Assembly (NCBI GenBank): GCA_964527965.1
Contig: CAZGPH010000006.1
Location: 175 to 64,174, forward strand
DNA: 64,000 bases
Source: an uncultured Marinoscillum sp.
GTDB taxonomy: Bacteria; Bacteroidota; Bacteroidia; Cytophagales; MED-G16
Direction: 5' to 3'
Part shown: positions 11,644 through 64,000 of the stretch, piece after piece
Position numbering within the stretch: the first letter of the stretch is position 1
Layout of the letters: the number at the start of each line of letters is the position of its first letter
The notes under the pieces: model-generated
What the model was told of the DNA's origin: nothing
Seen by the model: the letters and a program-made list of their open reading frames with translations, nothing else
Database searches by the model: none
Program-made: the position numbers and the translations under genes

Positions 11644-14277
11644 TTAATTGTTTAAAACTTTATTAAAATAAGACTGACCTTCTTCTAAAACACTTTTCAA
11701 ACCTTCTATTTTCTTACCTCCAGCTGTAGATAAGAAATCTTGACCACCACCTGAACCTTCTATATATTTTGACAAATCTTTAATTATAACTCTAGCATCA
11801 AGTTTAAATTCTTTTAAAATAATTTTAGAAATTAAAAGTACAATAGAAGGCTTATTATTCAATTCTGTAGTAGCTAAAAATATAATATTCCCAAACTCTT
11901 TCTCCAACTCAAAACCAATTTGCTTAATAAAGTCCACTTTCTCATCCTTAAAATGATGTAATATTATATTTGAATTATTTACTGAATTAATTTTCTTTTT
12001 AATTTCATCTTTAACAGAATTTTTCCTTAAAATATCAAATTTGTTAATCTCAGCTTCTAAAATTTTATTTTTCTTTAACAAACTACTAACAGATTCTACT
12101 AAATTATTTGATTTTAATAATTCTTTTAAACTAGTTAAATCTTTAGACTGCCTATCAGAATATGATTTAAGTTCTTTTGAGGTTAAAGCTTCAATTCTTC
12201 TTATCCCCGAAGAAATTGATCCTTCAGAAATAATCTTAAAAAGTCCTATTTCAGATGTATTTGATACGTGAGTACCTCCACATAATTCAGTTGAAAACTC
12301 TTTATCAATAATCACTACTCTGACTTTATCTCCATACTTTTCACCAAACAATGCCATCGCTCCCATTTTTTTTGCTTTATCTATTGATAAATCATTTAAT
12401 ATCTCAACACTTATATTTTCAAATATTTTGTTATTAACTATATCACTAATTCTATTTAGATCATTATCAGAAATTTTTGTAAAATGAGAAAAATCAAACC
12501 TTAAAATCTTATCATTAACAAGTGAACCTTTCTGAGTAACATGATCTCCCAAGACTTCTCTTAGAGCAGAATGAAGTAAATGTGTTGCAGAATGATTTTT
12601 TGATATTAATCTTCTTCTAAAAGAATTTAATGAAAGTTTAAATTCAGAATTTAAATTAGATGGTATTCTATCAGCTAGATGAATAATTAATTCATTTTCT
12701 TTAAAAGTATTTTCAATATTTATTTTTTCTTCTCCATAACTAAAATGACCAATATCACCAACTTGGCCTCCTGACTCTGCATAAAAAGGAGTAGCTGAAA
12801 AAACAATATGATATTTTTTAATGTTGTCAGAATTAACTTCTCTGAACTTAACTATCTTAGACGTTAGTGTATTTTTTTCATAACCATGAAATTCAGATTC
12901 TAAATTACTGTTTACAATCTGCCATTCATCCAAAGATTTTTCTGAGCTTTTTCTTGATCTTTTTCTTTGTTCTTCAAGATAATTGTCAAATGACTTTTTA
13001 TCTATTTGTAAATTATTTTCTCTTGCTATGAGTTCAGTTAAATCATAAGGAAAACCATATGTGTCATATAATTCAAAGACAATTTCTCCAGGTATTAATT
13101 TCTTTTTATCATCTAATTCCTCTTTGATTTTATTAATCTTCTTTAAACCATTTTCTAATGTTTTTAAAAATGTTTTTTCTTCTTCTAATATTAGGTTTAA
13201 AATAAAGCTTTCTTGGGTCTTTAAATTTGTAAATACATTATTATATTCTTCTATCACAGATTTGGCAAGTTTGTGAAGAAAAGGAGAATTAATTTCTAAT
13301 GTTGAAAAGCCATACCTCACAGCTCGCCTCAAAATTCTTCTAATAACATATCCAGACTTATTGTTAGATGGAATTGCACCATCAGAAATAGTAAAAACAA
13401 TTGCCCTTATATGATCAGATATCACTCTAAATGCAATATCATGCTTATCATTTTCACCATATTGTAAATTAGATAACTCACTTATTGACTTAATTATTGA
13501 TCTGAATAAATCTGTATCATATGTGGAATTAAGACCCTCTATTGCCATAGATAATCTCTCAAGTCCCATTCCTGTGTCAACATGTTTATTAGGAAGTGAT
13601 TCTAATGTACCATTACTTCTTCTATTAAACTCAATAAAAACTAAATTCCATATCTCTATAACTTCTGGGTGGTCTTTGTTAATAAGCTCAGAAGTAGGAA
13701 TTTTTTTAATTTCTTCTTTACTTCTAAGATCAATATGAATTTCTGAACAAGGTCCACAAGGTCCAGTATCTCCCATCTCCCAAAAGTTATCTTTCTTAGA
13801 TCCGTCAATAATTTTTTCATCATCAATTATCTCCTTCCATATATCTACAGCTTCAGTATCCTTCTTCAATTTTTCTATTTTGTCTCCACCAAATACAGTG
13901 ATATACAATCTTTTAGCATCAAGTTTGTAATGATTTACTAATAGATCCCAAGCCCAGTGGATAGCATCTTTTTTAAAATAATCTCCAAAAGACCAATTTC
14001 CTAACATCTCAAACATGGTGTGATGGTATTTATCAATACCTACTTCTTCTAAATCATTATGTTTTCCGCTTACTCTTAAACACTTTTGTGTATTTGCAAC
14101 TCTTTTTGTTTTGGGAGTCTCGTCACCTAAGAATATATTCTTAAATTGATTCATTCCCGCGTTAGTAAACATCAATGTAGGATCGTCTTTTACGGTGATT
14201 GGAGCTGATTCTATTATTTTGTGTCCCTTACCTTCAAAATAATCAAAAAATATATTTCTAATTTTTTTAGAGTTCAT
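11644..14277 (-). CDS. alaS: Alanine--tRNA ligase
   Basis: LMFTNAGMNQFK, HHTMFEMLGNWSFGDYFK, DTGMGLER, editing HSATHLLH and ELCGGTHV, C-Ala domain GGG. Confidence 0.99.
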   Translation of the reverse strand: MNSKKIRNIFFDYFEGKGHKIIESAPITVKDDPTLMFTNAGMNQFKNIFLGDETPKTKRVANTQKCLRVSGKHNDLEEVGIDKYHHTMFEMLGNWSFGDYFKKDAIHWAWDLLVNHYKLDAKRLYITVFGGDKIEKLKKDTEAVDIWKEIIDDEKIIDGSKKDNFWEMGDTGPCGPCSEIHIDLRSKEEIKKIPTSELINKDHPEVIEIWNLVFIEFNRRSNGTLESLPNKHVDTGMGLERLSMAIEGLNSTYDTDLFRSIIKSISELSNLQYGENDKHDIAFRVISDHIRAIVFTISDGAIPSNNKSGYVIRRILRRAVRYGFSTLEINSPFLHKLAKSVIEEYNNVFTNLKTQESFILNLILEEEKTFLKTLENGLKKINKIKEELDDKKKLIPGEIVFELYDTYGFPYDLTELIARENNLQIDKKSFDNYLEEQRKRSRKSSEKSLDEWQIVNSNLESEFHGYEKNTLTSKIVKFREVNSDNIKKYHIVFSATPFYAESGGQVGDIGHFSYGEEKINIENTFKENELIIHLADRIPSNLNSEFKLSLNSFRRRLISKNHSATHLLHSALREVLGDHVTQKGSLVNDKILRFDFSHFTKISDNDLNRISDIVNNKIFENISVEILNDLSIDKAKKMGAMALFGEKYGDKVRVVIIDKEFSTELCGGTHVSNTSEIGLFKIISEGSISSGIRRIEALTSKELKSYSDRQSKDLTSLKELLKSNNLVESVSSLLKKNKILEAEINKFDILRKNSVKDEIKKKINSVNNSNIILHHFKDEKVDFIKQIGFELEKEFGNIIFLATTELNNKPSIVLLISKIILKEFKLDARVIIKDLSKYIEGSGGGQDFLSTAGGKKIEGLKSVLEEGQSYFNKVLNN

Positions 14278-31961: not shown

Positions 31962-33299
31962 ATGCAAAATAAGCATTGGGAAAACTGTTTGTCTTTAATT
32001 AAAAGTAAAATAAATATTCAGAGTTATATTACTTGGTTCAAACCTATAAAGGCTACTCAATTTAAAAATAAAACTTTAACACTTCAGGTACCTAATAAAT
32101 TTTTTTATGAATGGATTGAAGAACACTATATTGAATTATTAAATGAGGTTATAATTAAAGTTATTGGAAATGAAGGTAAAATTGAATACGAAATTTCTAA
32201 AGAACAGATACTCAATTCAGAAACAAATGAAATAAAAGAAATTGTAACTGATAAAAAAAATACGAAATCAAAATTTGACAATCTTAACAGAAAATTTAAT
32301 TTCAAAACTTTTATATCAGGTAAATGTAATAGTGTTGCAAAAGCGGCTGGAAAAAGAATTTCAAAGAGCCCAGGGAATAATCCGTTTAACCCTCTTATGA
32401 TATATGGAGGAGTAGGACTTGGAAAGACTCACCTATTACAATCTATCGGAAATAAAATCTCAAAGAATTGTAATTTATCTGTTTACTATATCACATCCGA
32501 AAAGTTTGCCAGTCAGTTTATAGATGCGCTTAAAGAAAATAAATTAAAAGATTTTACAACCTTCTACTCAAATATTGAATGTTTAATTATAGATGATGTA
32601 CAGTTCTTTAAAGGTAAGGTAAAGACACAAGAGGTATTTTTTCATATTTTCAATCAACTAAATCTTAATAGAAAACAAATTATTTTAGCTGCTGATAAAT
32701 CACCTGTAGAGCTAGAAGGTCTAACCAGCAGACTAATTAGTAGATTTAAATCTGGCTTAACAGTTGAGCTAGAAAAACCTGATTATGAGACAAGATTAGA
32801 TATTCTTAATCATAAAATAAGAGAAGAGGGACTCACTATTGAAAAGGATATAGTAGAGTTTATTGCTTTTCAAGTTGATACTAATATTAGAGAGCTTGAA
32901 GGCGTTTTAATTTCTTTATTAGCTCACTCCACTATTAATAAAAAAAGTATTGATATAGATTTAGCTAAATCAGTAATAAATAAAATTGTTAAGAATACTA
33001 AAATAGAAATTGATATTAAATATATTCAAGATGTAGTATCAAAATATTTCAATATTAGTATTGAGGACATGAAAGATAAAGCTAGAAAAAAAGAAATAGT
33101 TATTGCAAGACAAGTTGCAATGTACTTCTCAAAAGATTTTACAAATAACTCTTTAAAATCGATTGGTTTTCATTTTGGTGGTAGAGATCACAGTACCGTT
33201 ATTCATGCTGTTCAATCTGTTAATGATATGATTGACACAGACTCTATTTTCAGAAAAAACATCAAAGAAATCAACAGAAGAATTTCTGTAAGTAATTAA
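31962..33299 (+). CDS. dnaA: Chromosomal replication initiator DnaA
   Basis: TWFKPI, Walker A GGVGLGKTHL, IDDVQF, RLISRF, NIRELEG, domain IV RQVAMY and GGRDHSTVIHA. Confidence 0.98.
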   Translation: MQNKHWENCLSLIKSKINIQSYITWFKPIKATQFKNKTLTLQVPNKFFYEWIEEHYIELLNEVIIKVIGNEGKIEYEISKEQILNSETNEIKEIVTDKKNTKSKFDNLNRKFNFKTFISGKCNSVAKAAGKRISKSPGNNPFNPLMIYGGVGLGKTHLLQSIGNKISKNCNLSVYYITSEKFASQFIDALKENKLKDFTTFYSNIECLIIDDVQFFKGKVKTQEVFFHIFNQLNLNRKQIILAADKSPVELEGLTSRLISRFKSGLTVELEKPDYETRLDILNHKIREEGLTIEKDIVEFIAFQVDTNIRELEGVLISLLAHSTINKKSIDIDLAKSVINKIVKNTKIEIDIKYIQDVVSKYFNISIEDMKDKARKKEIVIARQVAMYFSKDFTNNSLKSIGFHFGGRDHSTVIHAVQSVNDMIDTDSIFRKNIKEINRRISVSN

Positions 33300-33329: not shown

Positions 33330-34850
33330 TTGAAATGCAAAATTATGTTTTCAAAATTTATAATTTCTTTTTTAAAAATATTGAAGTCTTTTGATAGGTC
33401 ATATTCTATTCAAAATAAAAATCAAAAACAGGCAAATAAAATCCAAAAAAATCTATTAAATAAACTAATTAAAAAATCCATAAAAACTGATTTTGGTATA
33501 GATCATGATTTTAAAAATATTAAAACTTATAATGATTTTAAGACAAATGTCCCAGTTAGAGATTATGAAGAAATAAAAAAATATATTAATAAAATAAAAA
33601 AAGGCGAAGATGATATTTTATGGCCTGGAAAACCTTTGTATTTAGCAAAAACATCAGGAACAACTTCAGGAACTAAGTATATTCCTCTCACAAAAGAATC
33701 TCTAAAGAATCAAATAAACTCAGCGAGCTATCTACTTATCAAGTATCTAATTAATAAAAAAAAATTGAGTGCTTTAATGGGAAAAGTTATGTTTATTTCA
33801 GGGTCACCTATTCTTGAATCAAAAAATAATATTATGACTGGGAGATTATCTGGAATAGTGAACTATCATGAGCCATTTTATTTAAAGCCAATAATTTTAC
33901 CATCTAAAAAAACTAATAGAATTAAGGACTGGGAAAAAAAAATTGATAAAATAGCAGATGAGACTATCGGAAGAGATCTAAGAATAATTGGAGGTATACC
34001 ACCATGGATTCAAATGTATTTTGATGTTTTAGAAAATAAAACTGGAAAAAAAATAATAAATATTTTTCCTAATTTAGAGCTTATTTGCCATGGAGGAGTG
34101 AATTTTGATCCATACAAAAACAATTTATTTAATTCTATAGGAAAAAAGATTGATACATTAGAGACTTTTCCTGCATCAGAAGGTTTCTTTGCCTATCAAA
34201 ATAAGATCGAAGAAGAAGATTTAATTCTTCAAATTAATTCTGGAATATTTTATGAGTTTATTGAATTGAGTGAATTAGAAAAAAATAATCCTAATAGGTT
34301 GATGGTAGGAGAAGTAAAATTAGATAAAAATTATGCTATGATTATTTCAACTAATGCTGGATTATGGTCATATGCTATAGGAGATACTATAAAATTCACA
34401 AACTTAAATCCATTAAAAATTAAGGTGACCGGTAGGACCAAACATTATCTCTCAACTTTTGGAGAACATGTAATTGTTGAGGAAGTTGACAAAGCATTAA
34501 ATAATGCATGTAAAAAATTTAATAATATTCAAATTGTAGAATACACAGTCGGCCCTAAAATAATTAATATAAAAGGAAAATCTCACCACGAGTGGTTAAT
34601 AGAATTTAAGAATACTCCTAAGAATATAGATTTATTTGAAAAAGAAATTGATAATAATCTTCGGAGTTTAAATCCTTATTATAATGATTTGATAAAAGAT
34701 GGAGTTTTAACTACTCTTAAAATTAAAATTATGAAAAAGAAATCATTTATTAATTTTATGAAATCAATTGGAAAGCTTGGTGGCCAAAATAAAGTCCCTC
34801 GAATCTCAAATGATAGAAAATTCATAACAAAAATATTAAATACAATTTAG
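33330..34850 (+). CDS. GH3 auxin-responsive promoter family protein (ANL-like adenylating enzyme)
   Basis: KTSGTTSGTKYIP, GRLSGI, ETFPASEGFF, YAIGDTI, GRTKH, GGQNKVPR. Alternative start ATG 33345. Confidence 0.9.
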   Translation: MKCKIMFSKFIISFLKILKSFDRSYSIQNKNQKQANKIQKNLLNKLIKKSIKTDFGIDHDFKNIKTYNDFKTNVPVRDYEEIKKYINKIKKGEDDILWPGKPLYLAKTSGTTSGTKYIPLTKESLKNQINSASYLLIKYLINKKKLSALMGKVMFISGSPILESKNNIMTGRLSGIVNYHEPFYLKPIILPSKKTNRIKDWEKKIDKIADETIGRDLRIIGGIPPWIQMYFDVLENKTGKKIINIFPNLELICHGGVNFDPYKNNLFNSIGKKIDTLETFPASEGFFAYQNKIEEEDLILQINSGIFYEFIELSELEKNNPNRLMVGEVKLDKNYAMIISTNAGLWSYAIGDTIKFTNLNPLKIKVTGRTKHYLSTFGEHVIVEEVDKALNNACKKFNNIQIVEYTVGPKIINIKGKSHHEWLIEFKNTPKNIDLFEKEIDNNLRSLNPYYNDLIKDGVLTTLKIKIMKKKSFINFMKSIGKLGGQNKVPRISNDRKFITKILNTI

Positions 34851-49987: not shown

Positions 49988-49998
49988 ATAAAAAAAAG

Positions 49999-50084
49999 TG
50001 CGCATGAGAAGAGTCGAACTTCCACGACTAAATCTAGTCACTAGGCCCTCAACCTAGCGCGTCTACCAATTCCGCCACATGCGC
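49999..50084 (-). tRNA. tRNA-Leu(GAG)
   Basis: Reverse complement GCGCATGTGGCGGAATTGGTAGACGCGCTAGGTTGAGGGCCTAGTGACTAGATTTAGTCGTGGAAGTTCGACTCTTCTCATGCGCA: anticodon stem CTAGG/CCTAG, loop TT-GAG-GG, long variable arm; CCA not encoded. Confidence 0.96.
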
Positions 50085-50094
50085 AAAATAAAAA

Positions 50095-50793
50095 TTATTG
50101 TTTTCTTTTTGTCCAGATTTCATATTTAGGATCCCCTTTCGAGCTAAATCCTTTATGATGCCAATCCCCTTCTTTTATTTCATAATCAAACTCTAAAGAC
50201 TTACCAACTGTATTAGAATCTCTAGAGAAAAATTCAATATTTTCAATATATTTTCCGTCTACAGCGGTAAATGTACCACCACCTGTACCATAAAAGCCTT
50301 TCTTTGAAGTATCATAGGCAATCCACTGAAACCTTCCTCCTGCAAGCATTTTCAAGGTCTTTCTTGGCCTAGTCACATCTCTCATTCTCATCTCTCCTCT
50401 CCTCTCAATACCACTCATCAACCACGCCCCACTAAGATTATCTTTATTAGGGTATTTATTAAATTTTATCCCATCAATTATCATCTTACCTGAATCATTT
50501 TTGATATTAACTTTTACATTAGAATAATAAACAGTGTCTCCTACTGAAGTTGAATCAGATGAATTAAATTCTAATATTTCATAATATCCATTATCCCAAG
50601 AATATCTCCCTCCTTTTGTACTTATAAAAGTTTTATTATTTGAATCATACTTTGATACTACAAAAAACTTATCAGAATAAATTTTAACTTCTATAACTCC
50701 ATTAATATCTCTGTACCAAGATGAGTTTTCAATACCATTAGAAAGACTAGAGGTATTTAATATTAAAACAAATAAAATATTAAACATTGTCAT
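50095..50793 (-). CDS. Secreted protein with two tandem lipocalin-like (DUF4488-like) domains
   Basis: Signal peptide; internal duplication F..T.GG.(Y/F)...Y.E..EF.S.DS..VG occurs twice. Confidence 0.75.
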   Translation of the reverse strand: MTMFNILFVLILNTSSLSNGIENSSWYRDINGVIEVKIYSDKFFVVSKYDSNNKTFISTKGGRYSWDNGYYEILEFNSSDSTSVGDTVYYSNVKVNIKNDSGKMIIDGIKFNKYPNKDNLSGAWLMSGIERRGEMRMRDVTRPRKTLKMLAGGRFQWIAYDTSKKGFYGTGGGTFTAVDGKYIENIEFFSRDSNTVGKSLEFDYEIKEGDWHHKGFSSKGDPKYEIWTKRKQ

Positions 50794-51910
50794 TTAACAT
50801 TACTGGCATTACTAACATGGTTATTTCTTCATTTTCACCAACATTATCTGGAATAATTAAACCAGCTTTATTTGGTTCTGAGAGTTTTAATATAACCTTA
50901 TCAGAATCTACATTTGAAAGTAATTCAATCAGAAATTTGGCATTAAATCCTATTTCAATATCTTCCCCATCATGTTCACATGAAATTCTTTCGTTAGCTT
51001 CATTTGAAAAATCCAGGTCTTCTGCAGACATTAAAATTTCTGAACCAGTAATTTTAAGTCTAACCTGATTTGTAGTTTTATTTGCATAAATAGAAATCCT
51101 CTTGAGAGAGCCCAATATTTCTGATTTACTAAGAGTAACTAAATTTGTATTATCACTAGGTATAACATTATCATAATCAGGGTATCTCTCATCAATAAGT
51201 CTACAAACCATTTGTACACTTTCAAATGAAAAATATGCATTAGATGCATTAAATTCTAGTTTAACTTCTGAAGATTTATCTGAAGGTAAAATAGACCTAA
51301 GAAGATTTAACGATTTTCTGGGTAAAATCATATCATGATCAACCTCATCTCCCTTAATATCACTTCTAATATATTTGACTAATCTATGACCATCAGTAGA
51401 TACATATGTACAATTATTTTCAGATAATCTAAAAAACACACCCGTCATAGCTGGTCTTAATTCATCAGTACTAGTTGAGAAAATAGTATTAGAGATAGCA
51501 GAATTTAGTACTTCAGTATTTATAATTGTGCTATACCCATCAGATACTTCTGGTACCTTAGGGAAATCAGCTGAATTTTCACCTGCAAGTTTATATCTAC
51601 CGTTATCTGAATTTATTTCTATATTATAGTTTTCATCATCAATTGAAAATGTTACTGGTTGCTCAGGTAGATTTTTTAAAGTCTCAATCAAAATTTTAGC
51701 AGGTATTGCAACACTTCCATCTTCTTTTGACTCAACTTGAAGTTCTACCATTACAGATGTTTGCAAATCAGAAGCAGTTATAAGTAGATTACCGCTTTCA
51801 ATTTCAAATAAAACATTTTCTAAAATTGGGACAACAGGATTTGAGGTTATAACACCACCAATAGCATTAAGATTTTTAAGTAGATAGGAAGATGAGACAA
51901 TAAAATTCAT
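50780..51910 (-). CDS. dnaN: DNA polymerase III beta sliding clamp
   Basis: PILENVLF, ASDLQ, DELRPAMTGVF, STDGHRLV, YPDYDNVIP, IGFNAKFL, LVMPV. Confidence 0.98.
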   Translation of the reverse strand: MNFIVSSSYLLKNLNAIGGVITSNPVVPILENVLFEIESGNLLITASDLQTSVMVELQVESKEDGSVAIPAKILIETLKNLPEQPVTFSIDDENYNIEINSDNGRYKLAGENSADFPKVPEVSDGYSTIINTEVLNSAISNTIFSTSTDELRPAMTGVFFRLSENNCTYVSTDGHRLVKYIRSDIKGDEVDHDMILPRKSLNLLRSILPSDKSSEVKLEFNASNAYFSFESVQMVCRLIDERYPDYDNVIPSDNTNLVTLSKSEILGSLKRISIYANKTTNQVRLKITGSEILMSAEDLDFSNEANERISCEHDGEDIEIGFNAKFLIELLSNVDSDKVILKLSEPNKAGLIIPDNVGENEEITMLVMPVMLNDNV

Positions 51911-51950: not shown

Positions 51951-53372
51951 TCAATCTTCCTCATTAAAATCAAGAGTTTTAGCTCTGCCATCAGAGTCAG
52001 TATCATCATCAAGATTTATGTTTTTTCTTTTATATGCTGGTATAGCTAATTTCTGCTCAACAGAATCATCACCATAAATTTGGTTATTATGATTGTTAAT
52101 TCTTTTTTTTCTTTTTGTGACATACTCATTTTTTTTATTTGAAGAATCATAACTCTCAAGCGTATCAGTGTTATCTAATTCTTCAATTATTACCTCTTCT
52201 GTTTTATCATTTGTTTTAATCTTTTCATTAAGATTATCAAAATTATCTTCATATTCCTCATAATCATCTTCAATATTATGAATAACTTCCTCTTGAATTT
52301 CCTGTTCTCTCTTTTCAAACTCAATAGTACTATCTTCAAATAAATTAGTTTGTGATTTTTTTTCAGAAGAAATAAAATCTATATCATCTTTTTTATTTTC
52401 TTTTATATTAAATCCCGTTGCAATAATTGTGACTCTTACCTTATCATCTAATTCACCATCTATTGCCGTACCAAATATTATTTCAACATTTTCAGATGAT
52501 GATTCATTTACTAATTTAGTTATCGTATTTAACTCAATAGTTGAAAGTTCATTATCTCCTCCTCCTGATACGATATTTAATAATATTCTCTGTGCGCCTT
52601 CAATATCTCTATCATTCAATAAAGGAGAATTTATTGCATTTTCTATAGCTTCTTTAGCTCTACTTTCCCCTGAAGCTTCTGCAGAACCAAGTACAGAAGT
52701 TCCTGCGTCTTTCATAACTGTTTTAACATCCTCAAAATCAACATTGATCTGTCCAGGAACTGTTACAATCTCTGCTATGCATTTTGCACTTGTTGCTATA
52801 ATATCATCAGCCTTCTCAAATGCCTTTGATTGGCTAAGATCACCATAAATCTCGATCAATCTCTGGTTTAAAATTGTAATTACACTATCACAACCTTTCT
52901 TTAATTCTTCAACACCAATTAATGCCTTTTCCATTTTTGCTTTACCTTCAAATTCAAAAGGTAATGTAACAATACCAACGGTTAAAATATCTAATTCATT
53001 TGCAATTTGAGCAATAATAGGAGCTGCACCAGTACCAGTTCCTCCACCCATACCTGCAGTTATAAATAACATTCTAGTACCATCATTTCTAAGAAGTTCT
53101 CTTATCTCATGACTACTTTCAAGAGCAGCCTCCCTACCCTTACTTGGATTTGCTCCAGCTCCTAAACCCTTAGTTAGTTCCATTCCAATTTGAAGTTGAT
53201 TATTGACACTAGAAGAATATAAAGCCTGAATATCAGTATTACATATAATAAATTCAACATTTCTAATTCCAATTGAATTCATATAATTAACAGCATTACT
53301 ACCACCTCCACCTACACCAATAACCTTAATTATTGATTTGTGATGGGAAGGTAAGTCAAATTCAAACGGCAT
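51951..53372 (-). CDS. ftsZ: Cell division protein FtsZ
   Basis: GVGGGGSNAV, GLGAGANP, GMGGGTGTGAAP, NVDFEDV, SPLL, IIATGF; long acidic linker. Confidence 0.98.
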   Translation of the reverse strand: MPFEFDLPSHHKSIIKVIGVGGGGSNAVNYMNSIGIRNVEFIICNTDIQALYSSSVNNQLQIGMELTKGLGAGANPSKGREAALESSHEIRELLRNDGTRMLFITAGMGGGTGTGAAPIIAQIANELDILTVGIVTLPFEFEGKAKMEKALIGVEELKKGCDSVITILNQRLIEIYGDLSQSKAFEKADDIIATSAKCIAEIVTVPGQINVDFEDVKTVMKDAGTSVLGSAEASGESRAKEAIENAINSPLLNDRDIEGAQRILLNIVSGGGDNELSTIELNTITKLVNESSSENVEIIFGTAIDGELDDKVRVTIIATGFNIKENKKDDIDFISSEKKSQTNLFEDSTIEFEKREQEIQEEVIHNIEDDYEEYEDNFDNLNEKIKTNDKTEEVIIEELDNTDTLESYDSSNKKNEYVTKRKKRINNHNNQIYGDDSVEQKLAIPAYKRKNINLDDDTDSDGRAKTLDFNEED

Positions 53373-53378
53373 AATTAA

Positions 53379-54698
53379 TTATAAATTTTCATCTTTAAAT
53401 TCTGTAAGATCATCATCTTTAAGGAAACCCTTAATTCTTTCTGTGACTAGTTTACCAAAGTTATTTACTTTAGGCAATGACGATCCATCAAATGATCTTG
53501 AATCATTCCTGTTTTTAATTCCAGGAGAATTTACATAATCCCAAAGCAACAAGCCAACAGCTGTTGAGTATTTAGGATACTCAAGGTTTACTATATCTGA
53601 TTTTGTTAAATAAGATGAAGGGTATCCCTTCCTGACATCTAAACCAGTAATATATTTAACCTGTTGTTTTAAATTTAGAAGTTGAGAGCCTCCACCAGTT
53701 ATAACAATTCCGGCAGATAACTTTTCACTCATACCACTATTTAAAATTTCTTGATGGACTTTTTCAAAAATTTCTTCCATCCTCGCCTCAATTATTTTAT
53801 ATAAATTATCTAATAATATTTTTTTATCTTCTCTCTGGCCTTCACCCTTAATCTTGACATACTCCTTTACTGGTCTTTTAACATACAAAGCTTTACCAAA
53901 CTTAATTTTTAAAGCTTCTGCATGATGCCTAGGTAGACCTAAACCCTCTTTAATATCTTGAGTAACAATATCACCTCCCAGTGGGATAACAGCAGTATGT
54001 CTAATAATATTATCGTGAAAAATTGAGATATCTGTTGTGCCTCCTCCAATATCAACAAGGCAGATACCATCTTCTTTATCATTTTCATCTAATAGAGCTA
54101 AACTTGATGCAATAGGTTCAAGAATTAAATTACGGCATTTAACTTGTGATCTTTTAATAGATTCTTCCATTATTTTAATATCAACTTTATTAGCACTTAT
54201 TATATGGAAATCAGCCTCTAACTTTTTACCATACTCTCCAATTGGGTCTACTGAATCATGGTCTTCATCAATAGTAAATTTCTGATGCATACTATGAATT
54301 ATTTTATGATTAGTAGGTATCACAGCCATCTTAGATCTTTGTTCAAGTCTTTTGATATGAGAATGATTAATCTCAATAGGTTCATTTTCATTATTTTGTA
54401 GGCCTATAGAATGATGAGTACTAAAACTTCGTATATGTTTTCCGGCAATACCAACATTAACAAACTCTATAGGAACTTTTGCCATTTTTCCAGCTTCTTT
54501 TACGACATCTTTTATTTTTGATGTTGCTTTTATGAGGTTTTGAATCATTCCCTCTGAGACACCTTCAGAATCTGTTTCAGAAAAGCCAATAATTTTTAAT
54601 TTATTATTTTCAGTCTGTTCTGCAATAATTGCACAAATTTTTGAGGTACCTATATCTAATGCTGTAAAATATTTTTTTATAGGCTTATTCATTTTCAT
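53379..54698 (-). CDS. ftsA: Cell division protein FtsA
   Basis: LDIGTSKI, VGIAG.HI, LVDIGGGTTD, IEARMEEI, TGGGS, C-terminal amphipathic helix. Confidence 0.96.
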   Translation of the reverse strand: MKMNKPIKKYFTALDIGTSKICAIIAEQTENNKLKIIGFSETDSEGVSEGMIQNLIKATSKIKDVVKEAGKMAKVPIEFVNVGIAGKHIRSFSTHHSIGLQNNENEPIEINHSHIKRLEQRSKMAVIPTNHKIIHSMHQKFTIDEDHDSVDPIGEYGKKLEADFHIISANKVDIKIMEESIKRSQVKCRNLILEPIASSLALLDENDKEDGICLVDIGGGTTDISIFHDNIIRHTAVIPLGGDIVTQDIKEGLGLPRHHAEALKIKFGKALYVKRPVKEYVKIKGEGQREDKKILLDNLYKIIEARMEEIFEKVHQEILNSGMSEKLSAGIVITGGGSQLLNLKQQVKYITGLDVRKGYPSSYLTKSDIVNLEYPKYSTAVGLLLWDYVNSPGIKNRNDSRSFDGSSLPKVNNFGKLVTERIKGFLKDDDLTEFKDENL

Positions 54699-55420
54699 GC
54701 ATTTTTATCACAGATAATTTGATTTCTAAATTTAACATTGACTGTTTTATAAGTGTTCCATCCTTTTGTTGGAGCAATATTATTATAGAATAACATTATT
54801 TTTTTAAATTTTTCTTCCAAATTATCAGGATATCCAAAAATAAATTTTTGTTTTGATAATTGTGGATGAATAACAATATTTTTATTTGATTTTATTTCTA
54901 TCTCTGAAATTATTTTTGATAAAAAATCATCCCCATTAATAAAGTTTATCATGTTCATAAGATCCTTTGAAAATTTTAAATTTTTATTATTAATATCTAA
55001 GTCATTATTCATATGAATTAATATTACTCTCTCTGAAAAATTAGAAGATATAGGAAATAAATTACCCTGAGAATCAATATATTTTTTTGAGTTAATACCA
55101 GAAACAATTCTAGCAATAGGCTCAAATTGTTCAACCTCAACATTTATGTTACCAACTAAATCTTTATACACCTTAATATCTCTGACATGAGGGTTTGAAC
55201 TAAGTTTTTTTTCTAAATCATCTAGATCAACTAAAGATGAGTCAGAAGAAATCTGATCTTGAAGAAACACCTCTACAATATTTTTATTAAGAAATGTACT
55301 ATCAACTCTTACAATAAAATTATTTGAATTTATATCATTATTTCTAAACAATAATATTATTGAATACATTAAGAAACATATAAAAATAAATACAACTATT
55401 TTTGAAATTTTTTTTATCAT
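54695..55420 (-). CDS. ftsQ: Cell division protein FtsQ/DivIB
   Basis: N-terminal TM, POTRA-like LEKKLSSNPHV, C-terminal KGWNTY..VN.KF..QIIC; dcw position. Confidence 0.88.
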   Translation of the reverse strand: MIKKISKIVVFIFICFLMYSIILLFRNNDINSNNFIVRVDSTFLNKNIVEVFLQDQISSDSSLVDLDDLEKKLSSNPHVRDIKVYKDLVGNINVEVEQFEPIARIVSGINSKKYIDSQGNLFPISSNFSERVILIHMNNDLDINNKNLKFSKDLMNMINFINGDDFLSKIISEIEIKSNKNIVIHPQLSKQKFIFGYPDNLEEKFKKIMLFYNNIAPTKGWNTYKTVNVKFRNQIICDKNA

Positions 55421-56541
55421 ATCTCATCATAAATTTTAGAAACAATATTTTTAGCAGCATCAGGTTTCGCTAATTTTTCTAGAGATTTTTTCATCTTTAT
55501 TTTCATTTCTGAATTTTCTAGTAAAATAATTGCCTGATTTAACATATTATCTTTTGCATCTTTGTCTTCAACTAGTAAACATCCTCCATTCCTAAATATT
55601 TCATTAGCATTCTTTCTTTGGTGGTCATCAACTACATTAGGAGAAGGAATTAATATCAAAGGTTTAGAAATATAACTTAGCTCAGATATAGCTATTGCTC
55701 CAGCTCTAGATATAATAATATCAGCAACTTGATATGCTAAATCCATTCTTTTTATAAATGACTTAACTACTAAATTTTTTTCTTCAATATTTTTTGATAA
55801 AATATGATCATAGTAATAATCCCCTGTTTGCCATAATACCTGAAAGGAAGATTCTCTTATAATTGAAAGATTATTTAAAATACCTTCATTAATACTTTTT
55901 GCTCCAAGAGATCCACCTAAAACAAGTATTGTTTTTTTATCTCTATCTAAATTAAAATAATTAAATGGATCCTGGCTTATATTCTTGCTGTATTTTCTGA
56001 TAGGATTACCTAAGTTTAAGACAGTATTCTTATCAAAAAATTTTTCTAGATTATTATAAGCAACAAATATAAGCTTCACTCTTTTTGATAATAGTCTATT
56101 TGTATATCCAGGAAAGGAATTTTGTTCTTGGATTGCAGTTTTAAAATTCAAAATTGATGAAATTAATAGAAATGGCCCAGAAGAATATCCTCCAAAACCT
56201 ATTACGTAATCAGGTTTATATTTAATAAGTATATAAATTGACTTAACCGTTGAATAAAAAATTTTAAACGGTAAAAGAAAATTTTTAATTAGAAATGGAA
56301 TACCTAAAAAAAGAATATTCAATAAAAATGAAGACCTTTTAATTCCTGAAATCCAAAGTCCAATAATTGGATAATTATATTTAGGTACAATTTCCATTTC
56401 CATTCTATCACTAGATCCAACAAATAATATCTCATTTTTTAAATTTCTTTTTTTTATTTCATCAGCTATAGATATCATAGGAAAAATATGTCCACCTGTC
56501 CCTCCTCCACATAAAATAACTTTAATCTTTTTATCAAGCAT
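55417..56541 (-). CDS. murG: Undecaprenyldiphospho-muramoylpentapeptide GlcNAc transferase
   Basis: GGGTGGHIFP, GGYSSGP, QEQN, GGSLGA, RAGA..ISE, DHQ..NA; start placed at MLDKK (56541). Confidence 0.96.
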   Translation of the reverse strand: MLDKKIKVILCGGGTGGHIFPMISIADEIKKRNLKNEILFVGSSDRMEMEIVPKYNYPIIGLWISGIKRSSFLLNILFLGIPFLIKNFLLPFKIFYSTVKSIYILIKYKPDYVIGFGGYSSGPFLLISSILNFKTAIQEQNSFPGYTNRLLSKRVKLIFVAYNNLEKFFDKNTVLNLGNPIRKYSKNISQDPFNYFNLDRDKKTILVLGGSLGAKSINEGILNNLSIIRESSFQVLWQTGDYYYDHILSKNIEEKNLVVKSFIKRMDLAYQVADIIISRAGAIAISELSYISKPLILIPSPNVVDDHQRKNANEIFRNGGCLLVEDKDAKDNMLNQAIILLENSEMKIKMKKSLEKLAKPDAAKNIVSKIYDEI

Positions 56542-57649
56542 AACTCTTCTCAAAATTATTTTGTCTACTAACACTAAGAATTATTCCTAATGTAATACCT
56601 GTAAATAATTGAGATGTTCCTCCCATACTAATTAAAGGTAATGTTACTCCTGTTACAGGAAGAAGGCCGACTACAACACACATATTTGTTATAGCCTGAA
56701 TAACTAATGCAAAACTTAAACCAGCACTTAATAACCCTCCAAATGGCCTCTCAGAATCAATAAAAATTTTCATGCCTCTATACAATAGAATTAAGTAAAG
56801 TATAAGGATAGAAATACCCATTAGAAAACCATATTCTTCCACAATAATTGCATATATAAAATCAGAAGATGACTGTGGAAGAAAGTTTTTCTGATTACTA
56901 TTACCAGGTCCTTTTCCAAATAGCCCACCAGTAGATACTGCTATATAAGCTTGTTCTAGTTGATAAGGAATATTTTTTTTATTAATAAAATCTTCAACTC
57001 TACTTAAGGCAGTATAACCTCTCTGACCTGTTAAAAGTGCAATGCCTCCACTAAATAAAATAAATAAAATAAGTAATGAAAGATGTGAAATTTTAACTCT
57101 TGATATAAACATTAATAAAATAGAAGTAGCACCTAGAATTAATGCTGTAGATAAATTTGTTAGAGCAATACATAAACATATTAAACCAATCCACAAAAAA
57201 GGCATAAATAAAGTCTTAATATTATCTAAATCATATTGTTTTTTTGCAAGAAAACTTGAAAGGTAAATTATGAGAGAAAGCTTTGCCAAATCAGATGGTT
57301 GAAAAGCCATATTTATAATTGGGATACTTATCCATCTTGAGGCTTCATTAATATTTACTCCAAACTTATATGTAAAGATTAAGAGAGGTACTGAGATATA
57401 AAGACCAATTAAAGATATTCTTGAAAAATACTTGTAATCTACTCTATGCGAAAACCACATTGCAATAAAACTAAATGATATTAATACAAAATGCTTTACA
57501 AGGTAGAATTCAGTATTTCCTCCTTTATTTTGTAGAGCTAATAAACTTGTAGCACTATAAACTGAAAGTAAACCTATAACTGACAATACAATAGCAATTA
57601 TCCAAATGATTTTATCGCCTTGAATATTATCTTTTATCCAATTTACCAT
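56534..57649 (-). CDS. ftsW: SEDS glycosyltransferase FtsW
   Basis: RWI....FQPSD.AK, YQ..QA..A..GG..GKG.G.S, SDFIYAII.EE.G, P.TG..LP.IS.GGTS. Confidence 0.94.
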   Translation of the reverse strand: MVNWIKDNIQGDKIIWIIAIVLSVIGLLSVYSATSLLALQNKGGNTEFYLVKHFVLISFSFIAMWFSHRVDYKYFSRISLIGLYISVPLLIFTYKFGVNINEASRWISIPIINMAFQPSDLAKLSLIIYLSSFLAKKQYDLDNIKTLFMPFLWIGLICLCIALTNLSTALILGATSILLMFISRVKISHLSLLILFILFSGGIALLTGQRGYTALSRVEDFINKKNIPYQLEQAYIAVSTGGLFGKGPGNSNQKNFLPQSSSDFIYAIIVEEYGFLMGISILILYLILLYRGMKIFIDSERPFGGLLSAGLSFALVIQAITNMCVVVGLLPVTGVTLPLISMGGTSQLFTGITLGIILSVSRQNNFEKSYA

Positions 57650-57650
57650 A

Positions 57651-58859
57651 TTATCTAAGTTTTAAGGTTGCCAAAGTGACTATAGCTAACAATATACTTA
57701 TCATCCAAAATCTAGCAACAATTTTAGTTTCATGAATTCCTTTTTTCTGATAATGATGATGAAGAGGAGCCATCAAGAAAACTCTTTTTCCAACTCCATA
57801 TTTTTTCTTAGTATATTTAAAATATAGTACTTGAATTATAACCGATATGTTCTCTATTAAAAAAATTCCACAGAGAACAGGAATTAATAACTCTTTCTTA
57901 ATAATAATTGCTAAAACAGCAATTATAGCTCCAATTGATAAACTACCAGTATCTCCCATAAAAACTTGAGCAGGATAAGAATTATACCAAATAAAACCTA
58001 TACATGCTCCTACAAAAGCAAAAGAAAAAATAACAAGTTCACCAACCATTGGAATGTATAAAATATTTAGATAATCAGAAAATATTATATTACCAGATAG
58101 ATAGATAAATATTGATAATGTTATTCCAATTATAGCTGAAGTGCCTGCTGCAAGGCCATCTAAACCATCAGTAATATTTGCTCCATTTGATACAGAAGTA
58201 ATAATAAAAATAATAATCAAACTATATATGGCCCAAGTATAATCATCTAAAACACTAGGTAATAACCAATCATATCTAAATTGGTTATCCTTAACAAATG
58301 GAATTGTAGTAATTAATTCTTTAGTATCTTCATGATCAACTCCTCTTAATAGACTTTCTTGTGTTATAGGTTCAGTGAAATTTCTCACAACTACTGATTC
58401 ATTAGAAATTAATATAAATGAAACAAAAATTCCAATTAAAATTTGTCCAATTATTTTAAACCTTCCCTTCAACCCATCTTTATTATTATTTTTAATTTTC
58501 AAGTAATCATCTATAAAGCCTATTAAACTGATGAAAACTGTCACTATTAACATCATAATTATATAGATATTAGAAAGGTCTGCAAATAATAATGTTGGAA
58601 ATATTATTGATAAAACTATGATTAAACCACCCATAGTCGGAGTCCCTTTTTTTTCTTTCTGACCATTTAAATCAAGATCTCTTATTTTTTCGGATAACTG
58701 AAAATTTGTTAGAATACTAATTATTTTTTTACCAAAAAGAATACTTATTACTAAAGAAAATAAAGCAGCCATTCCTGCTCTAAATGATAAATATTGAAAG
58801 ACACCAGTCCCTGCTATATCGTAATTATTATTTAAATATTCAAATAGACTGTATAACAT
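57651..58859 (-). CDS. mraY: Phospho-N-acetylmuramoyl-pentapeptide transferase
   Basis: [38 protein letters not shown]. Confidence 0.98.
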
Positions 58860-58860
58860 A

Positions 58861-60300
58861 TTATAAAATTATTTTTTTTAAAATTTCCTTATCATCATGT
58901 GGAATAGATTTATCTCCTATAATTTGATATTTTTCATGACCTTTTCCAGCGACTAAAATTATTGAATCTTTTTTATAGTTCAAGCATGCCTCTTGTATTG
59001 CTTTTTTTCTATCAGAAATAATAATAAAGTTTTTTCTTACAGCTCCTTTTACTAAATCTGAAATAATATTTTCTTCATTTTCATTTCTTGGATTATCTGA
59101 AGTAAAGATAACATGGTCACTATATTGTGTAGCAATTTTTCCCATTTCAGATCTTTTAGACTTATCTCTATCTCCTCCAGCACCTACAATAGTAATCACT
59201 TTAGCTTCACTCTTAAATCTAGATATATTAATTAAAACATTTTCTAGAGCATCAGGTGTATGTGCATAATCAATTATACCAATTACATTATTTTTTCCAT
59301 GAATAAAATCCATTCTACCATTTGGTGTATTAAGTTTAGAAAGGTTTTTGAAAATAATATCAGATTCAATTTTTAAAACTTTTCCAACTGCAAATACACT
59401 CAAGAGATTGTATGCATTAAAATCACCGATGATTTTAAAATGAACATTTACATTATCAATCTTTATTTTAATACCATTAGTTCCACTTTCAACAATTTTT
59501 CCTTTTGAATCAGATATTTTTTTTAGTCCATATGAGAGAACTTTTGATTTTGTATTCTGAACTAGATATTCTGATCTTTTATCATCTGAATTTATAATCG
59601 AGTATGAGGTTTTAGGTAAATCATCAAATAATTTTTTTTTCGTATTAATATAATTTATAAATGTTTTATGGTAGTCTAAATGATCATGTGACAAATTAGA
59701 AAAAATTCCTATAAAAATATCTTTGCCCATTATCCTTTTCTGATCAATTGAATGAGAGCTAGCTTCCATAACACAATATTCACATGAACTTTTAATCATA
59801 TTATCTAATAACTCATGTAATTGAACAGGACTTGGGGTTGTGAGTTTAGACTTAACTTTCTTGTCTAATATACTATTCTCTATAGTTGATAACATCCCTA
59901 CTTTTATACCTAAAGAACTTAAAAAGTTATAAAGAAAAAAAACTATTGATGTTTTTCCATTTGTTCCAGTAACAGCAATGATTTTAATTTTTTTTGCAGG
60001 ATCATTATAATATTTTGAGGATATATCATAGACAGATTCTCTAATATTTTCTACTACTATATAGCATACAGCTGGAGTTATTTTATTTGGTAAATAAGAG
60101 CAAATTATAACTTTACATCCTTTTTGAATAGCATTATCAATATATCTATGTCCATCTAAAGAGATACCCTTTATAGCAAAAAACAAATAATTATGTTTTA
60201 CTAGTTTAGAATTATCAGTTATCCCCTCAACAGTTGTATTAATATCACCAACTATTTTTATAATTTTGACATCACTAATAATCTCTTTTAATTTTTTCAC
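58861..60300 (-). CDS. murE: UDP-MurNAc-dipeptide--meso-DAP ligase
   Basis: [40 protein letters not shown], meso-DAP-type DNPR, AGKGHE. Confidence 0.97.
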
Positions 60301-62381
60301 CCTAAACTTATACTAATTGATTTATATTTCTTAATTAATTTCCCTGGAGAAATATTCTGTTTTCTAACTCTTCCCTTACCTGAAAAAGTAACATTTAAAC
60401 CTCTTGATTCTAAAAGATATATTGCATCTTTTAAGGTCATCCCAACAACATTAGGAACTAAATGAATTTTTGAGTTTATAGACTCCCAATATATAGAGTT
60501 ATCGATAAGTTTTGTTCTAACCCACTCACTGTCAGATTGTGAATGATTAGATAAAGCCAAATTATTTGATAGGAATACAAGATCATCCTTATATCCTGCT
60601 CTAATTTGTGGAAAGGTAAATTTAAAATCTTCTTTCTTGATTTCTTGAAAATATTTCTCATCCGAAATAAATATCTTATCAGCAATTTCTTTAAAGACAG
60701 GAGCTGCTACATCACTACCATAAATTCTATATTTTTTAGGGTTATCAATAACTACAATACAACTATATTTTGGGGTTTCACTTGGAAAGAATCCTGCAAA
60801 TGAAGTATAATACCTATTAGCATACCTGCCGTTTACTACTTTTTTTGCAGTACCCGTTTTTCCTGCAATTTTATAATTACTATGTTTGATATTATCAGCG
60901 GTTCCATTTTCTACTACTCCTTCCAATAATTTCTTTACAGTATTAATTGATTTAATTCCTGCAATATTTTTAGTTTTTGAATTATCAAATTTTTCAATTA
61001 ATCTATTAGCACTCTTGACATTCTTTACTATTCTAGGTTGAACATATATTCCATTATTAGCAACTGCATTATAAAAAGTGAGAGTATGAAGTGGAGTTAA
61101 CATTAATTCATAACCATGAGCTATCCAAGGGAGAGAAACCTTACTCCATGTTGAATCTTTACTATTTTTTATTTGAGGTTTTGAAGAACCGAAGATTTGA
61201 AAATCAAAATTATTATTAAAACCAAATCTCCCTAAGTAGTCTAAAAAAATTTGAGGAGATCTATTAAAAGTCTCATCAATCATCTTAGCAACTCCTATAT
61301 TTGAACTTTTTTCAAAAACTTCTTTTATTGTAATTTTACCATAGCCTCCTGGCTTATGATCTTTCATTAATTCAGAATAAAACCTATATTCTCCCTCACC
61401 TGTATCTACAGAATCATATATTGAACTCTCTGTTTCCTCTAAGTATGCTAGCATACTAGCTAATTTAAAAGTTGAGCCAGGTTCATGCATTCCCTGAATG
61501 GCATAATTATAATTTTCGGTATAATAGCCTGATTTATTTTTACTAAAATTTGATATTGCTTTAATATCACCTGTCTCAACTTCCATTAAAATTACTGATC
61601 CATAATCAGCATCATTAATTTTTAATCCTTTTAATAGAGCTGATTCAGCTATATCCTGTAGGTTTACATTTATAGTTGTGACAATATCAAAACCATTCTT
61701 AGGTTGTATCTCATTACCATCATAAATTGGCCTCCAATAATTTCCAGCAATTTTTTGAGTGAGTATTTCTCCATCCTTTCCATTAAGAAATGAATTAAAA
61801 CTATACTCAATTCCTACAGTTCCTTTATTATTTTCATCCACAGAACCTATTGTCCTATAGCCTAATTTTGAGTATGGTCTGTACCTCTCATCCATTTTTT
61901 CAAAAATAACTCCACCATTCAATCTTCCCTCTCTAAAAATAGGCCATGTATTTAATATCTTTTTTTCTTGATATCCAATTTTCTTTCTATTTAATAAAAG
62001 GTATCTTCTCTTATTCTTTCTGGCACTTAAAATATTATTTTTATACTCATTCTTACTTTTATCTTTAAAAAAATATGATAATAATAATGCTAATGAATCT
62101 AGATCATTTTCTAATAAAATATTATTAGGTATTGAAGGATCAAAAGCAACTTTATAAAAAGGTAGAGAAGTAGCTAATATACTTCCATCATCAGATAAAA
62201 TATTTCCCCTACTTGCTTTTATTTTATCATATTTGAAATTAATATTTTCAGATTTTGATTTCCAATAATCACCCTCTGAAAATTGTAAATCAAAAATACT
62301 ATAGACTATGCCTAAACTTATAATTATTACCATCACGAAAGCTATCTTCACTCTCAATAAAATTTCTTTTTTAATATTCAT
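60297..62381 (-). CDS. ftsI: Division penicillin-binding protein FtsI with C-terminal PASTA domain
   Basis: RGNILS, EPGSTFK (SxxK), SSN (SxN), GKTGT (KTG), VPNVVGM. Confidence 0.95.
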   Translation of the reverse strand: MNIKKEILLRVKIAFVMVIIISLGIVYSIFDLQFSEGDYWKSKSENINFKYDKIKASRGNILSDDGSILATSLPFYKVAFDPSIPNNILLENDLDSLALLLSYFFKDKSKNEYKNNILSARKNKRRYLLLNRKKIGYQEKKILNTWPIFREGRLNGGVIFEKMDERYRPYSKLGYRTIGSVDENNKGTVGIEYSFNSFLNGKDGEILTQKIAGNYWRPIYDGNEIQPKNGFDIVTTINVNLQDIAESALLKGLKINDADYGSVILMEVETGDIKAISNFSKNKSGYYTENYNYAIQGMHEPGSTFKLASMLAYLEETESSIYDSVDTGEGEYRFYSELMKDHKPGGYGKITIKEVFEKSSNIGVAKMIDETFNRSPQIFLDYLGRFGFNNNFDFQIFGSSKPQIKNSKDSTWSKVSLPWIAHGYELMLTPLHTLTFYNAVANNGIYVQPRIVKNVKSANRLIEKFDNSKTKNIAGIKSINTVKKLLEGVVENGTADNIKHSNYKIAGKTGTAKKVVNGRYANRYYTSFAGFFPSETPKYSCIVVIDNPKKYRIYGSDVAAPVFKEIADKIFISDEKYFQEIKKEDFKFTFPQIRAGYKDDLVFLSNNLALSNHSQSDSEWVRTKLIDNSIYWESINSKIHLVPNVVGMTLKDAIYLLESRGLNVTFSGKGRVRKQNISPGKLIKKYKSISISLG

Positions 62382-62698
62382 TCTTTGTATGATATTTTTT
62401 CAGGTGGTAGTTTAGAGTTTTTCAGGCCAATTTCTTTTACTCTTTTTAGAATTTCAGACTCCTTTCTAGAAAACATATAATTATTATTAAGAGTTACATA
62501 ATCAGTTCTCAATTCTTCTACTTCTTTCTCTAACTTATTTATTTCTCTTATTTGTTTTTCAACTGAATGTTGATTACTGATGTAAATAATTAAAAATAAT
62601 AATAAATAAAATATCTTGTAAAAGTCAATATTTAAAGAACTAGGCAATTCTAATTTTAATGATTTTAAAATATCATCTATTTTATCCTTAACATTCAT
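62378..62698 (-). CDS. ftsL: FtsL-like cell division protein
   Basis: Single TM + coiled coil, IYISN.H, position between rsmH and ftsI. Confidence 0.8.
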   Translation of the reverse strand: MNVKDKIDDILKSLKLELPSSLNIDFYKIFYLLLFLIIYISNQHSVEKQIREINKLEKEVEELRTDYVTLNNNYMFSRKESEILKRVKEIGLKNSKLPPEKISYKE

Positions 62699-63597
62699 AT
62701 TTTTTCTCCAATTCTTAACTTTGCACTTCTTGATCTAGGATTTTCTTTTAATTCCTCTAATGAAGGAGTAAATGGTTTTTTATTTATCCTCTTAAAAAGC
62801 TCCACTTTTTTACCATATAAATCTTTTTCATAATCAGGTAAAAAATTTGATTTATTAATAAAATTTTTAACTAATCTATCTTCAATAGAATGATAGGATA
62901 TTATAACTAGCCTACCTTTTGTATTTAATTGATTTACTGTTTTTTTAAGCATTTCCTTTAATGAATTTATCTCATCATTTACTTCTATTCTTATAGCTTG
63001 GTAAAATTTTGACAAAAACTTAAATGATACTCTCTTACCAAAAATTTGATTTAAAATTTCAATCAAATCAGAATTTTTTTTTATTCTTTTTTTATTCCTA
63101 TAATTAATTATTTTATCGACTATAGATCCAGAATTTTTTATATCTCCATAATTAAATAAAATCTTTTTAAGATTACTTTTTTCATAATCATTGATAACAT
63201 CTTCTGCAGAAAGTTTAATTTCCTTACTCATTCTCATATCAAGCAAATAATCTCCTTTATATGAAAAACCTCTTTCTGAGTTATCTATTTGATGTGATGA
63301 AATACCAAGATCAGCAAGAATCCCATCAACTCTATCTATCCCTTTACTTTTAAGGTGATTATCAAAAAATTTAAAATTGCTTTGAATTAATTCAAAATTA
63401 CCCTGAGAAATTGGATTATTCTTAATTGCGTCTTTATCTGTATCAAAAGAAAATAATTTTCCTTTTTTACTTAATTTTTTTAAAATTAACTTGGAGTGAC
63501 CTCCTCCTCCAAAAGTAAGATCAACGTAGATTCCCTCTGGTTTTATACTTAATCCTTTTATTGATTCATTAAGTAATACAGGAACATGATATTTCAT
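62695..63597 (-). CDS. rsmH: 16S rRNA m4C1402 methyltransferase
   Basis: HVPVLL, D.TFGGGGHS, DLG.SS.Q, RGFSY, LDMRM, QAIRIEVN, YHS.EDR, NPRSRSAKLR. Confidence 0.98.
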   Translation of the reverse strand: MKYHVPVLLNESIKGLSIKPEGIYVDLTFGGGGHSKLILKKLSKKGKLFSFDTDKDAIKNNPISQGNFELIQSNFKFFDNHLKSKGIDRVDGILADLGISSHQIDNSERGFSYKGDYLLDMRMSKEIKLSAEDVINDYEKSNLKKILFNYGDIKNSGSIVDKIINYRNKKRIKKNSDLIEILNQIFGKRVSFKFLSKFYQAIRIEVNDEINSLKEMLKKTVNQLNTKGRLVIISYHSIEDRLVKNFINKSNFLPDYEKDLYGKKVELFKRINKKPFTPSLEELKENPRSRSAKLRIGEKI

Positions 63598-63603
63598 AAT
63601 TAA

Positions 63604-63999
63604 TTATACATCAAGATATTTTTGAGCCAACTTAGAGAACTCTTCAGAGCTACTAATCAAATTCTTTTTATAGATAACAGGGTTCCAAAGTTCAATAATA
63701 TTACCTACTCCAATAAGAATCACATCTTTCTCTAATTCACAATGAGAAATCATTGATTTTGGTATCAAAAATCTAGCATTTGAATCAAGATCAACCTGAG
63801 ATATGCTACTAAATAAATTTCTTTTTAATTTTCTTTGTTCAGAACTAAACTCATTAAGTGAATTAATTCTTGCATAAATATTTTGAAACTCACTTAAAGG
63901 ATATATAATAAGATTAGGCTCAAATCCTTTCCTAACAACTATGCTATTCTTAGAAGCTGAAGGTAAGACTGATTTTAACCTAGAGGGTAAAACCAATCT
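63604..63999 (-). CDS. mraZ: MraZ (partial; 5' end outside the window)
   Basis: R-LVLPSRLK, LIIYP, D..ARFLIP, IG.G..IELW. The frame stays open to the window edge, so the TTG at 63996 is not the real start. Confidence 0.92.
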   Translation of the reverse strand, partial: RLVLPSRLKSVLPSASKNSIVVRKGFEPNLIIYPLSEFQNIYARINSLNEFSSEQRKLKRNLFSSISQVDLDSNARFLIPKSMISHCELEKDVILIGVGNIIELWNPVIYKKNLISSSEEFSKLAQKYLDV

Positions 64000-64000
64000 C

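Follow-up and report, generated by a model that had tools for sequence, protein, structure and literature searches.

Ancient absence of murD and murC from the division and cell-wall operon of a marine Bacteroidota clade, with both genes most likely encoded elsewhere

The division and cell-wall (dcw) operon described here, which lies in a stretch of 64,000 nucleotides that was analyzed as a whole (hereafter, the window), contains neither murD between mraY and ftsW nor murC between murG and ftsQ, and this cluster variant is ancient and clade-defining. Its host is a free-living, streamlined marine Bacteroidota lineage, matching MAGs and SAGs that carry the label Marinoscillum or Flammeovirgaceae. 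We consider it quite probable that, in the ancestor shared by the clade, murD and murC either moved or gave way to copies at other sites.

The operon was delineated from open reading frames and family models. All of its genes lie on the minus strand, in the order mraZ-rsmH-ftsL-ftsI-murE-mraY-ftsW-murG-ftsQ-ftsA-ftsZ, followed by dnaN, and this is the collinear, single-strand order of a Bacteroidota-type dcw cluster in every respect save the murD and murC slots. At its head is mraZ (63604-64000; TIGR00242, 100.3 bits, above the cutoff), whose 5' end lies beyond the window and whose full-length product is 147 aa on other contigs, including L001 and L072. It is followed by rsmH, or mraW (62695-63597; TIGR00006, E=1.6e-96), by a Bacteroidota-type ftsL (62378-62698; PF19579 FtsL_2, E=6e-26) with a 4-bp overlap on each side, and by ftsI (60297-62381), which encodes a PBP3-type transpeptidase with a PASTA domain, as judged by PBP family matches and STFK, SSN and KTGT motifs. 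The sole Mur ligase gene of the window is murE (58861-60300; NF001126, E=4e-168), and it precedes mraY (57651-58859; TIGR00445, E=1.5e-97) and ftsW (56534-57649), which encodes a SEDS glycosyltransferase; TIGR02614 was the best match for the latter (E=1.1e-80), though its 271 bits fall below the equivalog cutoff of 337.5. The murG gene (55417-56541) begins with an ATG at 56541, shares 8 nt with ftsW and specifies a 374-aa protein with a GGTGGH motif and a TIGR01133 score of 266.5 bits, above the cutoff of 250.25.

The weakest assignment in the operon is that of the divergent ftsQ (54695-55420), for which the NF004039 match was poor (E=6e-4), the POTRA signal was weak (Pfam POTRA_1, E=0.008, 16.9 bits, below the 23-bit cutoff) and identity to ftsQ-slot proteins of other lineages was 24-32%. 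Its size, its N-terminal membrane segment and its position ahead of ftsA-ftsZ all fit FtsQ. Downstream are ftsA (53379-54698; TIGR01174, E=5.8e-98), ftsZ (51951-53372; Tubulin and FtsZ_C Pfam matches on the identical gene in L001) and, directly after ftsZ, dnaN (50780-51910). The window has a G+C content of 27% and is ~94% coding. A scan for promoters and terminators was uninformative, returning 101 sites against 94.5 expected.

Several features around the operon were recorded in passing. The dnaN gene adjoins ftsZ in every one of the eight clade loci long enough to show it, and in the window dnaA (31962-33299) lies ~18 kb away. In the six loci of other Bacteroidota that continue past ftsZ, the next gene is instead groEL, yqeY, thyA or one for a transketolase. 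A GH3-family protein (acyl-acid amido synthetase-like) is encoded at 33330-34850, between dnaA and dxr. In one relative, L008, ~270 bp of extra sequence (13160-13439) separates ftsA from ftsZ, which are ~6-10 nt apart in other members of the clade. Just downstream of the operon region, a tRNA-Leu(GAG) gene (49998-50084) showed a word depth in metagenome runs far above that of its surroundings, as is expected of sequence shared with other taxa.

At the first of the two empty slots, positions 55417-55420 read TCAT on the plus strand and therefore ATGA on the minus strand. The TGA stop codon of murG occupies 55419-55417 and the ATG of ftsQ, the first possible ATG of that ORF, occupies 55420-55418; the two genes thus show at 55417-55420 the stop/start overlap of coupled gene pairs. 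The first-pass annotation of this DNA had described a 4-bp ATGA overlap of murG and ftsQ with no murC between them, and the sequence bears out its coordinates and supplies the strand (minus), which had been left unstated. The second gap is also real, a single nucleotide separating the mraY stop from the ftsW start on the minus strand (57647-57653), with no murD between. In tblastn searches of the window, MurC and MurD queries hit only MurE.

The first-pass annotation had also taken the tightness of the overlap as a mark of special selection, a view that comparison with the rest of the window did not support. Overlaps of 4 bp are the norm in this densely coding genome; they are the commonest type of junction, found at 10 of 42 same-strand neighbouring gene pairs, and at 5 of the 11 junctions of the operon. 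Because of this frequency, the overlap itself cannot be read as evidence of any particular selection. The ATGA overlap fits general genome compaction, and from its sequence the junction probably provides ordinary termination-reinitiation coupling, as at neighbouring junctions.

We then considered whether the two empty slots stem from faulty assembly or binning, or from a recent deletion confined to one strain. Independent assemblies of marine metagenomes include at least 23 contigs that encode the exact 374-aa MurG, and the six of these that were compared all have an identical gene order. Furthermore, 16 marine metagenome runs contain the region at 0.78-0.98 of sampled words, and both junctions are spanned, with few or no differences, by Logan contigs from separate runs. 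One of these (X1 record 2; 2937 bp) covers 54065-57001 without differences, another (X19 record 12; 4563 bp) covers 54285-58847 and crosses both junctions, and X8 records 29 and 30 are further junction-spanning contigs. Since the independent contigs and the Logan contigs from separate runs agree, an assembly artefact is excluded, in keeping with the earlier judgment that the junction is not an assembly gap. We found no point in support of either an artefact or a recent strain-specific deletion, and the junctions are common to the independent contigs, to several run-level assemblies and to nine species; the chance that this explanation is correct is accordingly put at next to nothing.

To place the change in time, relatives were found by scanning one genome per species. 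This yielded nine related MAGs or SAGs, labelled Marinoscillum or Flammeovirgaceae, with MurG proteins 64-96% identical to that of the window. Their WGS prefixes are NZUF01, CAYXSW01, CAZKLB01, CAJWTC01, CACPHX01, NZYP01, NZKG01, CABYXZ01 and NZVP01. In all nine, mraY adjoins ftsW and murG adjoins ftsQ, at FtsQ identities that go down to ~50%. The geometry of the junctions was compared over ten clade loci: the spacing from mraY to ftsW is +1 nt and that from ftsW to murG is -8 nt in 10/10, and murG and ftsQ share the ATGA in eight, with a longer overlap in the remaining two. The spacing between ftsQ and ftsA, an old junction taken for comparison, is variable. The conservation of the ATGA across the clade confirms the age of the overlap.

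All eleven other Bacteroidota lineages seen keep the order mraY-murD-ftsW-murG-murC-ftsQ, with murD of ~1.35 kb and murC of ~1.4 kb in the slots, and several of those with both genes in place are equally AT-rich marine lineages. They are about equally distant from the clade (MurG identity of 37-47%), which makes the clade an isolated branch. As an observation apart from this comparison, one marine lineage carries between murD and ftsW an extra ORF of 154-165 aa with no Pfam match (L075, 7309-7773; L076, 7276-7773; L077, 624-1088).

On the shared gene order, both excisions took place before the clade radiated. The first-pass annotation had argued for an old change in preference to a recent deletion and had proposed a comparison of dcw synteny across relatives; the comparison upheld the argument, the two gene-less slots being shared by relatives whose MurG identity ranges from 96% to 64%. 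It had further named, as grounds for giving up its reading, close relatives that routinely have murG beside ftsQ and murC at another locus. Close relatives do routinely have murG beside ftsQ, but no murC at another locus was located among the matches listed.

The remaining genes of the pathway were next examined for integrity and constraint. In comparisons of the window with the relative L008, at 83-93% protein identity, dN/dS was 0.147 for murE, 0.051 for mraY, 0.044 for ftsW, 0.127 for murG and 0.054 for ftsI, indicating strong purifying selection. MurE is full length, its closest solved structures are MurE enzymes, and it contains the motifs GTNGKT, EASSH, DYAHTPD and DNPR; MraY contains an 11-residue motif and HHH, and no internal stops were found in the pathway genes checked. 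Among members of the clade, divergence is much more rapid in MurE (55-61% identity) and MurG (64-69%) than in FtsI, MraY and FtsW (73-83%). This faster divergence is seen at the same species distances, and dN/dS differs in parallel (0.13-0.15 for MurE and MurG vs ~0.05). Other genes encode an M23 peptidase, an OstA/LptD-like protein, a BamD-like lipoprotein and a TonB-dependent receptor, with PorP/SprF just upstream of the operon, and the organism looks free-living and Gram-negative.

These results bear on whether the lineage is wall-reduced, its remaining peptidoglycan genes being relics or repurposed. The sole point in favor of such pathway decay is that two genes are missing from the cluster. 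A wall-reduced lineage would show decay, or relaxed selection, in the peptidoglycan genes that it retains. Neither was found, as all of these genes have dN/dS values of 0.04-0.15 and every catalytic motif checked is present; moreover, the organism has the genes of a free-living cell and the cluster is conserved across nine species. Because the selection data show constraint, they contradict pathway decay, which we regard as very improbable.

The substrate of MurE, UDP-MurNAc-L-Ala-D-Glu, is the product of MurC and then MurD, so that a conserved MurE implies a supply of this substrate from upstream. The only salvage ligase known to us, Mpl, skips MurE as well, and we know of no pathway that avoids MurC and MurD yet retains MurE. 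Thus, the activities of MurC and MurD seem still to be needed, since the rest of the pathway has kept intact genes under purifying selection, and if both are required they should be encoded elsewhere in the genome.

We therefore searched for murC and murD outside the two slots. Within the window, neither a phmmer search with MurE nor tblastn searches with the MurC and MurD proteins of up to ten lineages detected any Mur ligase besides MurE. Same-strain contigs showed none in the 10 kb upstream of mraZ, and 80 related metagenome loci (805 kb in total, mostly syntenic) showed none in the ~9 kb past the other end of the window. Across the ~94 kb surrounding the operon, MurE is the one Mur ligase encoded.

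Homologue searches were read at the best 120 matches, which were filled by other lineages. With a Flavobacteriaceae-type MurC as the query, the best 120 matches were saturated by the family of the query itself and included no candidate from the clade; neither a profile of Cytophagales-like AT-rich MurC proteins nor a single-query search with P0214 gave a clade candidate among the matches listed. Representatives of 50%-identity clusters were then searched exhaustively with the Flavobacteriaceae-type MurC, an AT-rich query. The best 150 clusters were ranked by AT-rich amino-acid composition, and most of the AT-rich candidates were traced through cluster membership and encoding contigs. No clade candidate was present among these 150 representatives, from which at least ten other AT-rich Bacteroidota lineages were recovered. 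In other dcw proteins, the clade is ~40-47% identical to all of the query lineages, so a normal MurC could rank below the best 120-150. The absence of the clade from the best 150 clusters hints weakly that any MurC it has is divergent, foreign or merged into another cluster.

The candidates that were followed up were set aside for several reasons. P0285, P0271, P0219, P0213, P0260, P0450 and P0317 come from the normal murG-murC-ftsQ slot of other lineages. P0261 and P0159 are encoded by stand-alone murC genes on loosely packed contigs, that of P0261 with ankyrin-repeat genes, and do not belong to this clade. Two short proteins seen in Logan data only, P0125 and P0214, were dismissed indirectly on cluster membership and, for P0214, also by the follow-up search. 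The two stand-alone murC genes, with no dcw genes nearby, are those of L034 (10001-11410) and L035 (10001-11446), both AT-rich Bacteroidota contigs of 27-28% G+C; one of the genes lies beside ankyrin-repeat proteins, and the contig of the other is 506 kb long and loosely packed. Fusions were also seen among the MurC homologues: P0231 (802 aa), P0270 (826 aa), P0355 (816 aa) and P0195 (763 aa) comprise MurG-MurC fusions, one of them labelled Bacteroidales, and one protein that reads as a MurC-MurB fusion.

Finally, metagenome contigs were scanned for a hypothetical adjacent murD-murC pair and viral contigs for a MurC pattern, with no match in either. The identity of murC DNA between lineages is 65-78%; DNA patterns for MurC motifs built from AT-only codons missed every known AT-rich lineage, and a degenerate form would fit all Bacteroidota.

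These searches count against relocation to the extent that the clade's own MurC and MurD were found neither in the matches listed nor in the ~94 kb around the operon. The same results lend some weight to the idea that murC and murD are truly absent, with UDP-MurNAc-L-Ala-D-Glu made by non-homologous or unrecognisably divergent enzymes, especially as the other AT-rich lineages did turn up in the best 150; in addition, two separate clean excisions are unusual for one of the most stable bacterial clusters (PMC8871954). Nevertheless, only the best 120-150 matches were seen, among which a MurC from a clade this distant from the queries could rank lower or be merged, and the area covered was the surroundings of the operon together with the protein searches. 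True absence would also call for a route to the MurE substrate without precedent known to us, in a lineage whose murE, mraY, murG, ftsW and ftsI are intact and constrained, and we judge it improbable.

Altogether, our results indicate that murC and murD most likely reside at another genomic locus. According to this model of relocation or replacement, murD and murC would have been cleanly removed from their two slots in the ancestor of the clade, and the operon would have closed up cleanly, leaving mraY and ftsW 1 nt apart and murG and ftsQ joined by the ATGA. The copies elsewhere might be relocated and vertically inherited, or they might have been acquired, after which those in the operon could be dispensed with. 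Departure of such genes from the cluster has precedent, as in bacteria the dcw genes that most often lie outside it are murC, murB and ddlB (PMC8871954). The stand-alone murC genes of L034 and L035 are further instances.

Few gene arrangements in bacteria are as stable as the dcw cluster, and an ancient, clean removal of two ligase genes from it, the order of all the others being kept, is an uncommon variant, carried here by small-genome ocean bacteria that are planktonic and abundant worldwide. The first two peptide-addition steps, those of MurC and MurD, are classic antibiotic targets. If the two genes are simply elsewhere, the arrangement illustrates operon compaction and can serve as a synteny marker of the clade; their true absence would point to an unrecorded route for these first two peptide-addition steps of cell-wall synthesis.

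Compared with the canonical Bacteroidota dcw cluster (mraZ-rsmH-ftsL-ftsI-murE-mraY-murD-ftsW-murG-murC-ftsQ-ftsA-ftsZ), the operon is alike in the order, orientation and orthology of the other eleven genes, but murD and murC are gone from their slots without remnant and dnaN directly follows ftsZ, as it does in none of the six outgroup loci that reach past ftsZ. The murG-ftsQ junction resembles the ATGA pairs of compact bacterial operons, and the same arrangement occurs at nine other junctions in the window; the murG-ftsQ pair differs from those only in having arisen by gene removal and been conserved since. In Cyanobacteria, all dcw genes are dispersed yet present (PMC8871954), and such dispersed-dcw lineages show that a complete pathway is compatible with Mur ligase genes outside the cluster (PMC8871954), as we propose here. 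Unlike in those lineages, however, the rest of the cluster is perfectly intact in this clade and even more compact.
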